DNA from: Escherichia phage REP4
Direction: 5' to 3' (one strand)
Length of the DNA: 64,000 nt
Sequence record: OQ174503.1
Part shown: piece after piece, positions 1,184 to 45,153 of the stretch
Numbering within the stretch: position 1 is the first letter of the stretch
Layout of the letters: each line of letters opens with the position of its first letter
Notes under the pieces: model-generated
The model's input: the letters and a program-made list of their open reading frames with translations, nothing else
What the model was told of the DNA's origin: nothing
Database searches by the model: none
Position numbers and translations under genes: made by a program

Positions 1184-2043
1184 TTACACCGCCATCTTTC
1201 CTTTCAAGACACCATGGGACTGATAATCTTTGAGAACGAAATCTCGTGCTGTCATATATTCAGTTAACCAATACATTTGAGTTTCAGTATCGCATTGACT
1301 GAATCCATTAGGCCAATTAATACTAAGTTTGCATAGATCCATAGGAGTTCTATTTAATATCTCTTTGCATTGCTCAATATGGTTAGAATAAATGTGTGTA
1401 TTACCACCCGAGAATACCAAATCGCCCGGAACTAGTTCACACATGTCAGCAACAATATGTAAAAGAGCAGCATAACTCGCGATGTTAAATGGAAGACCGA
1501 GGAAAACATCTACCGAACGTTGATACCATTGTAGGTCAAGGTATCCGTTACGCACATTAAACTGATAGAACATATGACAAGGTGGTAATGCCATCTGCTT
1601 GAGTTCAGCTGGATTCCATGCCGACACAATTTGACGTCTATCATTGGGAAATGTTTTAATACGATTAACAACTTCTACAATTTGATCTACACCACCAAAA
1701 TCACGCCACTGTTTTCCGTAAATTGGACCAAGTTCACCGCTATGATAACCTAAGTCTTTGGCCTGGTTTTCGTAGTTTTCATCCCAAATTGTTTTTCCTG
1801 CAATTAAAGATCCATGAGTACGTTGACGTAAATCATTTACGTTAGTACTTCCTGATAAGAACCACAATAACTCAGAAATACATGCATTCCAGGCGAGCTT
1901 CTTAGTCGTTACTGCAGGAAAACCTTTAGTTAAATCCCAGCGTAATTTAGTACCGAACAAAGCAATTGTTCCTGTGCCTGTTCGGTCATCGGTTTCATAG
2001 CCATTTTCCAGAATATCTTTAATTAAAAATTGGTATTGTTTCA

Positions 2044-16500: not shown

Positions 16501-17316
16501 ACTGTTAATGGTGATTGGAATAGTAAACGTCCTTTCGCAATTAACTTAACAACCGGCGAAGTGATGATGAATAATGGCATAGCTGTTCGCAGCGCTGCTT
16601 TATTCTATAATAGCATAAACGTCAAAGATAATGGTTCTATTAACTTTGATAAATCAGGTGCTAACCCGAGAAATATGAGAATATTTCATGCTGGCGATGC
16701 TTCTCGCGGTAACCGCATTGAAATTGCAGATGAAACTAACTATATTGCTTACTTTGAAAAGACTCCAGGTGGAGCTAACCGCTTTGTAGTAAATAATGCT
16801 ACTGTAGCTGGTGTTAACCAAATGAATTCATTTGGTATTAATATCAATAACGCACTTGGTGGAAATAGTATAGCATTTGGTGATAATGACACTGGAATTA
16901 AACAATCCGGTGACGGACTTCTTGATATTATTACTAACGCCGCACGCCGAATGAGATTCCAGACAGGTGACACCTATTCTGACATGAATATAAACGCTCC
17001 AAACGTTTATATTCGTTCTGATATTCGTTTGAAATCTAATTTCAGACCTATTGAAAATGCTCTTGAAAAGGTTGAACAGCTTGATGGTTTAATCTATGAT
17101 AAAGCTGACTATATAGGTGGTGAAATTGTTCAGACTGAAGCGGGTATTGTGGCTCAAACACTGCAAGATGTTTTACCAGAAGCAGTTCGTGAAGTTGAAG
17201 ATATTAAAGGTAATAAAATACTCACTGTTTCTTCTCAATCCCAGATTGCTCTTCTAGTTGAAGCTGTGAAAACACTTTCTGCTCGTGTAAAAGAACTTGA
17301 ATCTAAACTTATGTAA
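13528..17316 (+). CDS. 37: Long tail fibre distal subunit gp37 with C-terminal intramolecular chaperone domain, 1262 aa
   Basis: ORF track; N-terminus MATLKQIQFKRSKTAGARPAASVLAEGELAINLKDR typical of gp37; C-terminal SDIRLK...AQTLQDVLPEAV resembles S74-type autoproteolytic chaperone domains. Confidence 0.92.
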   Translation: MATLKQIQFKRSKTAGARPAASVLAEGELAINLKDRTIFTKDDSGNIIDLSISAGGSISGNITQTGDYLQNGTYNLNGNQFVYAGKYIEFLPKTAGNGAWANQHKNKAPIFTDLSSTTSTSEYHPLIKQRYKDGTFSVGTLVNEGSFKIQYINESGDSKYWTFNRNGSFIVDNGSIEVRAGNISASGNINSATGFVSAPRVNTKNINLSSKTFIPNNDTGYDIVSLPTWIYNPPADGSDRDTNGLNYMRKMRASNTSSIFHEIVDCRSGKPQEISWWTGVGPSSFQWAFDTSGRITAGKSISVGLPDSGTNGRYPLDSAISIGIAIGDNDTGIKWVRDGVYDLMANGISSATILNNGINSTKKLMVGYSRDSGSTWDFPNNNQAMFTARTDIDGNNNGDGQTHIGYSSNSKMYHYFRGTGRMAVGMAEGLIVEPGILDIKTGSNRVAIRADGTFDSTQRISMRTGLFLSGDDNTNALSFKAPTGVDGTKTINWDAGTRNGQNKNTVTIKAWGNSFNSTPGNRETVFEVSDSQGYYFYAQRTNPASGQTVGPINFKFNGTVETGHIVGLGNISASGTGSFGGNVTMSNGLFVQGGSSITGQVKIGGTSDALRIWNAEYGAIFRRSEDKFYIIPTPQNAGESGGISNLRPFYITLSNGKVSMDHDVDIGGGRFKVEVAGTTAGQRITVNASSDAIRINAPTQESSNFIQGRKADVPKWYLGIGDGGNVVRMHSYTHSHGIALNSDSVDITKPLKVGNAQLGTDGNITNGSGNFANLNTTLNRKVNSGFITYGATSGWYKFATVTMPQSTSTVFFKIVGGSGFNSGLFTQCNIAEIVLRTGNERPSDLNAVLYTRTTGMYSAAFRNIAVNNVSGNTYDIYVYAGTYCNQLVCEWSCTENATVSVIGINSSTQSPVDALPDTAVDGQVANVLNNLVDRGKVKRYEADSEIAINSPTGIRIRSNGDKTGSVATMLRNDGGSFYILFTDKNATDGAATVNGDWNSKRPFAINLTTGEVMMNNGIAVRSAALFYNSINVKDNGSINFDKSGANPRNMRIFHAGDASRGNRIEIADETNYIAYFEKTPGGANRFVVNNATVAGVNQMNSFGININNALGGNSIAFGDNDTGIKQSGDGLLDIITNAARRMRFQTGDTYSDMNINAPNVYIRSDIRLKSNFRPIENALEKVEQLDGLIYDKADYIGGEIVQTEAGIVAQTLQDVLPEAVREVEDIKGNKILTVSSQSQIALLVEAVKTLSARVKELESKLM
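17017..17313 (+). other. Putative intramolecular chaperone / autoproteolysis domain at gp37 C-terminus
   Basis: Motif S-D-I-R-L-K followed by about 95 helical residues, as in tail-fibre and endosialidase chaperone domains. Confidence 0.6.
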
Positions 17317-17317
17317 A

Positions 17318-17335
17318 AGAGGGCTTCGGCCCTCT
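17318..17335 (+). other. Intergenic RNA hairpin AGAGGGC-TTCG-GCCCTCT between 37 and 38
   Basis: Perfect 7-bp GC stem with UUCG loop directly upstream of the gene 38 SD (AAGGA); no clean U-run, so more likely an attenuator or stability element than a full terminator. Confidence 0.5.
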
Positions 17336-17346
17336 AAGGATTTTTA

Positions 17347-18138
17347 ATGGCAATTGTAGGTGTTCCTGGCTGGATTGGTGAATCTGCCGTGAATGAAACT
17401 GGACAACGTTGGATGGATGCTGCAATGAAAGCAGTTCGTGTTTCAGTTCCTGGTTGGATGAGCTCAATGGCTGGACAATCTAAAGAAGTATATTACAGCA
17501 TTGGTGCTAGCAATTCTTATAATAAAGATACGCTAATAAATTGGATAAAAGCCCAAGGAAGTACTCCTGTTGTTATTACTATTACAGGAAATATTGTTTC
17601 TCAATCTACTGGTGTTCCATGCTTAGATTTTCCTAGCTCATTAACTAATGCATATGTTACCTTAAATATTAATAGTGGGGTTCATGTATTAGGTCGGGGA
17701 GGAAATGGCGGAAGTAACTCTGCTGGTGGAGCAGGAGGAACTGCAATAAATAACGGAATTGGAACTCGTTTAAGAATAAACAATAATGGTATTATTGGTG
17801 GCGGCGGCGGTGGCGGCGCAGGTGCTAGATACAATCCTTTCCCTCAAATGGATATGAAATTTGGTGGCGGCGGAGGTCGTCCATTTGGCGCAGCTGGCGC
17901 AGCAGGAGGTGGCGCAGCTGCAGCATCTGCTGGTACAATTTCTGCTCCCGGTAAAGGCACTGTTTCTGGGGTTCACCATGGAGGAGATGGTGGAGATTTA
18001 GGAGCTGCTGGCAAATCTTCATATATTCAAGGTGGTACTGGAGGAACTATTCACTCGGGTGGCGCAGCAGGTAAAGCTGTTACTGGTAATGCTCCAACTT
18101 GGACTAAAGTTGGTACAATATATGGTGCAAGAGTATAA
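17347..18138 (+). CDS. 38: Tail-fibre adhesin gp38 (T2/T6 type) with glycine-rich motifs, 263 aa
   Basis: ORF track; conserved N-terminal gp37-binding region followed by poly-Gly islands (GGGGGGGAGA, GGGGGRPFGAAGAAGGGAAA, GGDGGDLGAAG, GGTGGTIHSGGAAG) separated by variable segments. Confidence 0.92.
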   Translation: MAIVGVPGWIGESAVNETGQRWMDAAMKAVRVSVPGWMSSMAGQSKEVYYSIGASNSYNKDTLINWIKAQGSTPVVITITGNIVSQSTGVPCLDFPSSLTNAYVTLNINSGVHVLGRGGNGGSNSAGGAGGTAINNGIGTRLRINNNGIIGGGGGGGAGARYNPFPQMDMKFGGGGGRPFGAAGAAGGGAAAASAGTISAPGKGTVSGVHHGGDGGDLGAAGKSSYIQGGTGGTIHSGGAAGKAVTGNAPTWTKVGTIYGARV

Positions 18139-18169
18139 TTTTGAATAAATATCCTTAAAAGGAGGGTCT

Positions 18170-43141: not shown

Positions 43142-43341
43142 TTTGAATGTTCTATAATTAATTTTAAGGCTTCTTCGCTGACAAAAATTTCATCAGGACC
43201 TTCTTCTACAACCCAATCAACCACACGAAGCTGATTAGATAAGAGCTCACATACGAGCTCCTTGTCATAATTTTTAAATAGCTGGTCAATACGTTTCTTG
43301 CGGGCTTTCTTAAGCTGGCGTTTATTTAAACGAGCCATCAA
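43138..43341 (-). CDS. Hypothetical 67-aa basic protein (soc.2 position)
   Basis: ORF track; ATG overlaps gene 56 stop. Confidence 0.55.
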   Translation of the reverse strand: MMARLNKRQLKKARKKRIDQLFKNYDKELVCELLSNQLRVVDWVVEEGPDEIFVSEEALKLIIEHSK

Positions 43342-43856
43342 TAACCTCGGTCTTGACGAGCGAAGTTTTCAGCATTTTTCAGATAATAAAGTTTAAAGAT
43401 TTCTTCAGCCGTAAGACCGAGACCTTGGAACATGTTCAGAACGAAATGAAGAATATCAATCATTTCAAATTTAATTTCCAACTGGTCTTGCGGAGACAAA
43501 TCAGTAATTAGAGTTTCACGACGTTCACCATGCTGTGACTTCCAAGGTTTCCATACAGCAGATGCATCTTTTTCGCCATTGCTCATACCGCCAAGAGATG
43601 TCAGAAGTTCACGGAATTCATCGTCAATATAATCTTTCTGATTACGCAGCCAATCAACAACTTCACCAGCAGTAGCCAAATCATCAGGATGACGGTTATA
43701 TTCAGGTTTATCTTTAGCTAAACGAACCTGCAAAGATTTCTGCATATCAAGCATAACCTGCAGCGGGTCTTTTTCATCACCGAGAATATCCCAGTATTCG
43801 TTTTGAGCTTTATCAGCGCCTTCGATCAGTTGTGAACATTCATTAAAGTATGCCAT
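43338..43856 (-). CDS. 56: dCTP/dUTP pyrophosphatase gp56 (MazG-like), 172 aa
   Basis: ORF track 43338..43949 shortened to ATG at MAYFNECSQLIEG; size and position as T4 gp56; N-terminal extension in track runs through intergenic DNA. Confidence 0.85.
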   Translation of the reverse strand: MAYFNECSQLIEGADKAQNEYWDILGDEKDPLQVMLDMQKSLQVRLAKDKPEYNRHPDDLATAGEVVDWLRNQKDYIDDEFRELLTSLGGMSNGEKDASAVWKPWKSQHGERRETLITDLSPQDQLEIKFEMIDILHFVLNMFQGLGLTAEEIFKLYYLKNAENFARQDRGY

Positions 43857-43927
43857 TATTTTTCCTTTCAATTCATGGATTAGTAGATTAATTATACAAT
43901 AAATATATAAAGCAATAAGGAGGACAT

Positions 43928-44128
43928 ATGGTACAAAAATTAATGGCACTTGTTAATGCCATAAAAGGTAATAAAAAACGTATAGCTTTTACTATTTCTG
44001 CTATGATAGGAATTTTACTTTGGAATTTTGTTTTATCGCCAGTAGCTATTGCTCATGGCGTTAGTATTCCAGTAATTACTCTTGATACATTCGTAGATTT
44101 AGCATTTGCTTTAGTTGGGTTAATTTAA
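43928..44128 (+). CDS. Hypothetical 66-aa two-helix membrane protein on the opposite strand
   Basis: ORF track; strong SD AAGGAGG 4 nt before ATG; hydrophobic segments; only plus-strand ORF with a good RBS inside the minus-strand early region. Confidence 0.5.
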   Translation: MVQKLMALVNAIKGNKKRIAFTISAMIGILLWNFVLSPVAIAHGVSIPVITLDTFVDLAFALVGLI

Positions 44129-45153
44129 ATCTTAGCATATTTAGATAGCCGCATTTTAGCCATCAGCCCTTGAGCAATATTATTTTTCATATATTCCATA
44201 ATTTGTTCAGGGGTTGCACCTTCCTTTCTAATCATATCATTAACATCTTTTGATTTCCAGGGAGATTTATCCCAAAACATAACCCTTTCTCCTGCATCAA
44301 CCAATTTAGTCATTCGTTTAATAGTGTCAGGATGACGAGGTTCATTATCTAAAACCCATACACGTCTATCTTTAAATGGAACAATTTCTAGGTCTAATTG
44401 ACCACCTGTAATAGCTATACCATTTTCAATAAAAAGTGAATCTATAGGTCCTTCTAGAACATATACATCACCATCTTTAACCCGTTCAACACCATAGATT
44501 TTTGTTGCCTCAGGATAAGCTTTGATGGTGATATATTTTTGAGGAGCATCTTTCTTTAATGCGCGTCCTTGAAAAGACTCAGCTTTTCCATTAGCATTAT
44601 AAATTGGAATAACAAGACGAGGCTCAGATATTTCCTTTTTATATGTTCCTGGTGCTATACTATTAACTAATTTAGGCCATTCAGTTGTAAACCAAAGATA
44701 TTTCCATTTATCCTTTGGAATACAGCGAGCTTTTACGTATTTTATAATTGGATGGTCTTCCGCCAGTTTATCTAATCTAATGCATGACGGAAGAGATTTA
44801 ATTATTTTCTTCTCAGGTTGTTTAGGAAGTTCTTTAGGTTTTTCTACTGGACGACTTTTACCTTTTTCTTTTCTTATTTCAAAGATATACTCACGATATA
44901 AATCAGGTTCAAACTCCTTTAAATATATTCCGATTGGTGCATGATAGTTACAGTTATAGCAATGAATATTTCCTTCATTATTATCACCATAATACCATCC
45001 ACGGGCTTTATTTTGGTCGGTTTTTGAATCTCCACAAACAGGGCATCTAAACCGTAATTTAAAAGTTGAACTATTATTTACTTGTGTGAATTTAGGTAAA
45101 TGAGCTAATGCACGGTATGCAAACTCATTATCAATCCAAGGTATTGATGGCAT
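44125..45153 (-). CDS. 61: DNA primase gp61, 342 aa
   Basis: ORF track; near-identical to T4 gp61 (zinc ribbon CPVCGDSKTDQNKARGWYYGDNNEGNIHCYNCNYH, TOPRIM core). Confidence 0.96.
   Translation of the reverse strand: MPSIPWIDNEFAYRALAHLPKFTQVNNSSTFKLRFRCPVCGDSKTDQNKARGWYYGDNNEGNIHCYNCNYHAPIGIYLKEFEPDLYREYIFEIRKEKGKSRPVEKPKELPKQPEKKIIKSLPSCIRLDKLAEDHPIIKYVKARCIPKDKWKYLWFTTEWPKLVNSIAPGTYKKEISEPRLVIPIYNANGKAESFQGRALKKDAPQKYITIKAYPEATKIYGVERVKDGDVYVLEGPIDSLFIENGIAITGGQLDLEIVPFKDRRVWVLDNEPRHPDTIKRMTKLVDAGERVMFWDKSPWKSKDVNDMIRKEGATPEQIMEYMKNNIAQGLMAKMRLSKYAKI

Follow-up and report, generated by a model that had tools for sequence, protein, structure and literature searches.

The DNA analyzed here is a stretch of 64,000 nucleotides from Escherichia phage REP4, referred to below as the window. 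It derives from a T4-like phage of the genus Tequatrovirus and is a mosaic, ~96-97% identical to many deposited genomes. The locus of interest is the interval between two minus-strand genes, gene 56, which encodes the dCTPase/dUTPase (43338..43856), and gene 61, which encodes the DNA primase (44125..45153, 342 aa). Gene 56 appears in the ORF list as a reading frame of 172 aa that starts MAYFNEC; it is a homologue of T4 gene 56, and its relatives at ~97% identity are annotated as dCTP pyrophosphatase. By the window sequence and the ORF list, the interval occupies 43857..44124, or 268 bp. The first-pass annotation had described a gap of about 270 bp with a single plus-strand ORF of 66 aa behind a Shine-Dalgarno sequence, and this description was accurate: the ORF extends from an ATG at 43928 to 44128, and the AAGGAGG motif (43917..43923, plus strand) lies 4 nt 5' of the ATG, the same spacing as that of the holin gene t in the window (GGAGGgtctATG). 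The stop codons of the ORF and of gene 61 overlap in the tetranucleotide TTAA (44125..44128), and a 4-nt stop-stop overlap with gene 61 is also present in T4, RB69, R3_1, VR25 and NM4.3. At its other end the ORF is divergent from gene 56; the two stand back-to-back, with interleaved promoters in a 71-bp spacer. On the evidence of the ORF list, the family profile and the dN/dS, the ORF is a small membrane protein gene of the phrog_2024 family, which includes RB69ORF029w and RB32ORF030w.

The minus strand of the spacer carries a predicted MotA-type middle promoter of gene 56 (43891..43915), recognized by alignment with the T4 element. It consists of a MotA-box-like TTGCTTTA (43915->43908), a spacer of ~11 nt and a -10 sequence TATAAT (43896->43891), followed after ~34 nt by the gene 56 ATG. 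The T4 counterpart, TTGCTTA-13 nt-TATAAT, aligns with it and is annotated in X01416 as P(M)16.53 (mot box and -10 region); judged by this alignment, the window element is a homologue of T4 P(M)16.53. The NC_000866.4 record notes that the gene 56 transcript is the oriA primer. A further minus-strand element lies within codons 6-12 of the 66-aa ORF, ~165 nt downstream of the gene 61 stop. This is a terminator-like hairpin (43943..43962) with an 8-bp stem followed by TAATTTTTGT and a folding energy of -8.9 kcal/mol; it is identical in T4, was not seen in other genera, and may act as the terminator of the 41-61 early transcripts. On the plus strand no intrinsic terminator was found for 4.8 kb downstream of the ORF, and only a weak A+T-rich hairpin lies over its stop codon, so that a late transcript would run antisense into gene 61. 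It had been proposed in the first pass that plus-strand transcription here would be antisense both to the 3' end of gene 61 and to the 5' end of gene 56. The overlap with the 3' end of gene 61 must indeed occur, whereas the second half of the proposal fails because gene 56 and the ORF are divergent.

A candidate late promoter for the ORF is found in the same spacer. The box AATAAATA (43898..43905, plus strand) lies 22 nt before the ATG and is the TATAAATA consensus with an A at position -13; the predicted transcription start is near 43911. T4 late promoters are defined by an 8-bp TATAAATA box that is perfect at 32 of 50 promoters, and the A(-13) form, present at 9 of 50, is the commonest variant (PMC2988020). 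In T4 late genes, which depend on gp55, gp33 and gp45, a TATAAATA-type box stands roughly one turn of the helix before the transcription start and close to a Shine-Dalgarno sequence and ATG, and at the level of sequence the 66-aa ORF has the same arrangement in its A(-13) form. Within the window the closest likeness is to gene t, which has the same order of elements (AATAAATA, about 20 nt, GGAGG, 4 nt, ATG); its box is also AATAAATA, 18 nt upstream of its ATG. Matches to WATAAATA are depleted in the window: 10 were observed on the two strands, compared with 23.8 +/- 4.9 expected from shuffled sequences, which is consistent with selection against stray late promoters. Five of the 10 sites lie 18-34 nt upstream of a Shine-Dalgarno sequence and ATG, and these belong to the late genes 34, 36, t and soc and to the 66-aa ORF. 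The ORF moreover shares its strand with late genes 34-38 and t of the window, while early and middle T4 transcripts all run counterclockwise (PMC2988020).

The box recurs among the homologues of the ORF. In 8 of 10 homologues from seven genera, NATAAATA is located 14-22 nt upstream of the ATG, although the surrounding upstream sequences are otherwise unrelated. ZX14 and R3_1 have a perfect TATAAATA, RB69 has AATAAATA, T4 and the IMG/VR genome IMGVR_UViG_2974787500_000001 (L010) have GATAAATA, and VR25 and Merci have CATAAATA. Two of these loci count against a late promoter: the T4 box GATAAATA is a rarer deviation from the consensus, and NM4.3 has only a poor match. In the work of Nolan et al., late promoters were predicted in front of orthologues of T4 late genes and nowhere else (PMC1524935), and none of the entries in their supplementary tables falls at the RB69 box (PMC1524935). 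A literature search by ORF names, T4 start maps, ribosome profiling, mass spectrometry and antisense transcription near gene 61 found no relevant report of a transcript or peptide. A sigma-70-type promoter for the ORF was rejected: the best the upstream plus strand offers is a weak match (9/12) that lies within gene 56 at a distance of 225 nt, and T4 early and middle transcripts run the opposite way (PMC2988020). From the AATAAATA box, its placement and its recurrence in other genera we infer that the 66-aa ORF is a late gene with its own gp55-type promoter. To call it antisense undersells its probable status: with its late-gene strand and late-promoter box it looks like an ordinary late gene inside the early region.

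The protein predicted from the ORF has the two hydrophobic stretches noticed in the first pass, at residues 23-41 (Kyte-Doolittle mean 2.01) and 48-66 (mean 1.87, with two Asp inside). The N-terminal flank contains 5 K/R and no acidic residue, and by the positive-inside rule we infer an N-in orientation with the Lys/Arg-rich N-terminal helix in the cytoplasm. AlphaFold2 places helices at residues 2-14, 16-42 and 52-63 with moderate confidence (pLDDT 74.5, from 7 sequences). For RB69ORF029w a transmembrane helix at 21-41 was predicted by Nolan et al. (PMC1524935 supplement). In three genera the second hydrophobic segment scores low (Kyte-Doolittle 1.1-1.3), and only in the Tequatrovirus and Mosigvirus types is it transmembrane-like, so that a two-pass topology is uncertain. 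The REP4 protein has the features of the phrog_2024 family, namely the basic N-terminal flank, the transmembrane helix and a W-N...P...G...P motif, and it matches the family profile with E=1.9e-30 by hmmscan (residues 2-66 against positions 1-65 of 65). Beyond this family no distant homology was detected: Pfam and NCBIfam each returned 0 families, a profile search of 1.84 billion representatives gave 7 hits, six of which are family members or fragments and one marginal, and Foldseek against viral structures retrieved only the phrog_2024 family.

Homologues of the ORF are widespread. The first-pass annotation had regarded it as an orphan; that view is contradicted by the profile match and by tblastn, which found homologues in 695 phage records with the 66-aa protein as query and in 919 with the ZX14 homologue as query. 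The identical protein is deposited as AWD91638.1 and under other accessions and was seen on 170 contigs. It is 95% identical to the RB32ORF030w-type copy and 52% identical to RB69ORF029w. RB69ORF029w, RB32ORF030w and VR5_029 are members of the same family at the same locus, on the clockwise strand and convergent with gene 61; we find no difference of substance between them and the REP4 ORF, which is another copy of the family. Scans of IMG/VR added few loci (5 and 7). Synteny was inspected at the loci of the window, T4, an RB32-type phage, RB69, ZX14, R3_1, VR25, Merci and NM4.3, which cover the genera Tequatrovirus, Mosigvirus, Kanagawavirus, Marfavirus, Gaprivervirus, Jiaodavirus and Moonvirus. 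At every locus inspected, in at least seven named genera, the ORF and gene 61 converge with their 3' ends. An intact ORF of 63-69 codons is retained at this place in seven genera at 22-54% protein identity, and both the upstream GGAGG and the start codon are conserved. In the cross-genus alignment, where overall identity is as low as 22%, three residues do not vary (W32, N33 and G44), and P38 and P48 are present in at least 90% of sequences. Among tequatroviruses the copies of the ORF give a dN/dS of 0.12-0.16 at a dS of 0.22-0.29, and their variable sites fall 7/2/12 by codon position, an excess at the third. These substitution patterns indicate that the ORF is a genuine coding gene under purifying selection, and by its distribution the gene belongs to the backbone of the enterobacterial T4-like phages.

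T4 itself has an intact copy of the ORF. It encodes 66 aa, is 92% identical to the REP4 protein and is located on the plus strand at 17738..17938 of NC_000866.4 (L001 4739..4939), where it lies unannotated in the 309 bp that separate dam from gene 61. The exact T4 protein variant lacks a protein accession at NCBI and was seen in Logan assemblies alone. Two other loci show variations on the common arrangement. The Gaprivervirus VR25 has two tandem paralogues 8 nt apart on the plus strand (L016 1295..1492 and 1501..1701), each subfamily, T4/RB69 and ZX14/R3_1, being represented once, with a single CATAAATA box before the first. In the Jiaodavirus Merci the small ORF stops short of the primase gene, and the 18 nt between them hold a G+C-rich hairpin, AGGGGCtttgGCCCCT (L017 1692..1711), which is likely to be a bidirectional terminator.

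The first pass placed dam between genes 56 and 61 on the T4 map, and the NC_000866.4 record confirms this, with dam at 16846..17625. The first pass had also noted no methyltransferase in the window, and we find none either. T4 Dam used as a tblastn query against all 64 kb gave nothing better than E=6, and no long ORF of the window contains a DPPY or FxGxG motif. Motifs of the D/N/S-PP-Y/F/W type occur only in short, spurious antisense frames; the DPPF at 18168, for example, falls within a frame of 72 aa that runs antisense to genes 38 and t. The possibility that dam is hidden elsewhere was also pursued in IME339, a close dam-less relative with a complete genome that is 95.7% identical to the window over 58.7 kb. 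No methyltransferase is annotated in the complete IME339 genome, and tblastn with T4 Dam found none better than E~1, so that a displaced dam is rejected both for the window and for this relative. Because a complete dam-less relative has no dam anywhere, the gene is most probably wholly absent from the REP4 phage.

It had further been noted that the ORF lies at the site where dam is expected. It neither occupies that site nor replaces dam, as in T4 this 66-aa ORF and dam stand side by side. The T4 Dam locus is the same 56-61 interval; Dam is absent from the window, and the 66-aa ORF occurs whether dam is there or not. In the phage collection, Dam at 90% identity or more to T4 occurs in 182 records, a dam-less junction like that of the window in 334, and the 66-aa ORF at 80% identity or more in about 500 tequatrovirus copies; by these counts the two types of junction roughly partition the genus. 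Dam is at the 56-61 locus in T4, T2 and about 180 other records; by the records surveyed about a third of tequatroviruses carry it there and the dam-less state is the commoner. Its presence or absence reflects an insertion or deletion at the point where the gene 56 promoter adjoins the 66-aa ORF, and the junction of these two elements is a hot spot for such events. The junction is empty in the REP4 window. It is occupied by dam in T4, by dam together with a 186-aa gene in L010, and by a homing endonuclease gene in phage vB_EcoM_WL-3 (L019 819..1469, minus strand). In ZX14 and NM4.3 it holds a 94-aa gene (L012 2137..2421 and L018 1145..1429, both minus strand) with a marginal match to MazG, whose E value of 0.091 is below the Pfam cut-off; R3_1 has the same kind of 94-aa gene, judged by size and position.

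Several of these junctions have features of their own. LH2, JE01 and GRNsp7 probably also carry a homing endonuclease gene, as their matches share the extra segment of ~650 bp, and an endonuclease is annotated there. The 186-aa gene of L010 (1841..2401, minus strand) lies between dam and the 66-aa ORF, and its end overlaps the dam start codon by one base. Its product has a weak, sub-threshold similarity to the DpnII restriction endonuclease family PF04556 (E=0.0045, 16.8 bits against a cut-off of 23). GATC, the Dam site, is cut by DpnII when it is unmethylated; since the target of the one is the site of the other, dam and the 186-aa gene may form a phage-borne methylase/nuclease pair. In OL964745.1, a T4 mutant clone (T4_7t1), dam and the small ORF both appear to be split by frameshifts (L005 599..1313 and 1501..1699), which could be a real mutation or an assembly error.

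The reading we favour is that the locus contains a conserved gene for a 66-residue inner-membrane protein, most probably transcribed late from its own gp55-type promoter, and we put the probability of this at about 0.75. The opposite extreme is a chance ORF in non-coding DNA, kept in place because the region is needed for the 3' UTR and terminator of gene 61 and for the promoters of downstream genes. There are signals on the other strand that could act in this way, namely the terminator-like hairpin inside the ORF and the gene 56 promoter in the upstream 71 bp, and the ORF was never called in the T4 reference annotation. However, the minus-strand hairpin is limited to Tequatrovirus while the ORF is conserved beyond that genus, and a chance ORF is further contradicted by the low dN/dS, the third-position excess, the invariant residues of an ORF kept intact in seven genera, and the conservation of the Shine-Dalgarno sequence and start codon. 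Taken together, these comparisons bring the chance ORF, or conservation owed to other-strand signals alone, close to refutation, and for practical purposes it is excluded. A more serious competitor makes the RNA the main product and the peptide secondary: the late transcript from AATAAATA, antisense to gene 61, would either pair with the early 61 mRNA, at its 3' end and 3' UTR, or collide with early transcription, and primase expression would be shut down or destabilised late. The overlap of the two stop codons in five genera leaves no room for a terminator, a plus-strand intrinsic terminator is missing over the 4.8 kb downstream, and most of the ORF mRNA has its complement in the part of the gene 61 3' UTR that precedes the hairpin at 43943..43962. 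Both strands of T4 are, moreover, transcribed at some sites at different times (PMC2988020). Against this, it is the amino-acid and not the nucleotide sequence that is conserved: dN/dS is 0.12-0.16, and W-N, P, G and P are kept at 22-50% identity. The strong Shine-Dalgarno sequence is conserved as well, the tandem paralogues of VR25 make sense for a protein and not for an antisense RNA, and the 18-nt gap with its G+C-rich hairpin in Merci shows that the overlap is not universal. We consider a predominant RNA function improbable.

If the product is a protein, a holin, antiholin or other dedicated lysis protein comes to mind. Like the product of T4 gene t, the 66-aa protein is a small or bitopic inner-membrane protein that is probably made late; it has two hydrophobic segments, it shares its promoter and Shine-Dalgarno layout with gene t of the window, and its homologue in vB_EcoM_OE5505 bears the name 'Holin' in UniProt and BFVD. 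That name, however, is an unreviewed automatic label on a single entry, and the other names listed are 'hypothetical protein', '(putative) membrane protein' and, once, a stray 'putative head morphogenesis protein'. The protein differs from the T4 holin and from small phage holins in having neither sequence or profile similarity to them, nor a hydrophilic, charged C-terminal tail, nor a position in a lysis cassette. Its last 22 residues average 1.98 on the Kyte-Doolittle scale and are without K or R, Pfam and PHROG holin families are unmatched, and its neighbours are the dCTPase and primase genes and not endolysin or spanin genes; T4-like phages have a complete lysis set of their own (t, e, rI, rIII and the spanins), all of it annotated in IME339, elsewhere in the genome. 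A dedicated lysis protein therefore seems unlikely to us. Imm and Sp, which provide superinfection immunity and exclusion in T4, are also small, phage-encoded envelope proteins of T4-like phages, and sp, in the early region that also contains the ORF, lies at a distance of only about 2 kb. Their genes are on the counterclockwise strand and so have the polarity shared by early and middle transcripts, whereas the 66-aa ORF has the opposite polarity and a late-type promoter, and it has no sequence similarity to either.

The following scheme is offered for the late inner-membrane protein that we favour. Late transcription would start from the gp55-type promoter AATAAATA at 43898..43905. The product would cross the inner membrane with a helix at approximately residues 19-42 and keep its N-terminal basic helix in the cytoplasm, and the conserved turn W32-N33...P38...G44...P48 would come to lie at the periplasmic end of the transmembrane helix. 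The second, short hydrophobic helix with its conserved acidic residue would either re-enter the membrane or lie on the periplasmic face. Through the invariant motif at the periplasmic interface the protein might act on another envelope protein during late envelope events. Searches of Pfam, NCBIfam, the representatives by profile, and Foldseek revealed neither homology to a characterised family nor a specific activity. As a tentative best guess we propose that the protein takes part in what happens at the envelope late in infection, for example in the timing or inhibition of lysis or in protection against attack from outside; we prefer this to the main alternative, an antisense effect on primase, which we regard as distinctly less probable. 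It would be something of a long shot if this late membrane protein, missed in the annotation of T4 and kept by essentially every enterobacterial T4-like phage, proved to have a specific role, for example as a new late control of the envelope acting on lysis timing, lysis inhibition or exclusion, or, together with its run-on antisense transcript, as a late off-switch for primase.

For the REP4 window itself these results are of little consequence. The gene is already deposited, being catalogued as a hypothetical protein in hundreds of T4-like records, and the absence of dam is a routine presence/absence polymorphism among related phages. What the present analysis adds is that the T4 copy is unannotated, that the family spans at least seven genera and that a late-promoter box is present. 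The locus is an example of a late-type gene within an early replication-gene block, back-to-back with the oriA-priming MotA promoter and tail-to-tail with the primase gene, and by its layout early and late transcription would meet there. The NC_000866.4 record is without a gene at 17738..17938 on the plus strand, where comparative evidence indicates a real one, and annotation-based proteomics and knock-down screens of T4 will miss it. As a conserved small membrane protein with an invariant motif in at least seven genera, its product is a reasonable knockout target for studies of late envelope events in T4.
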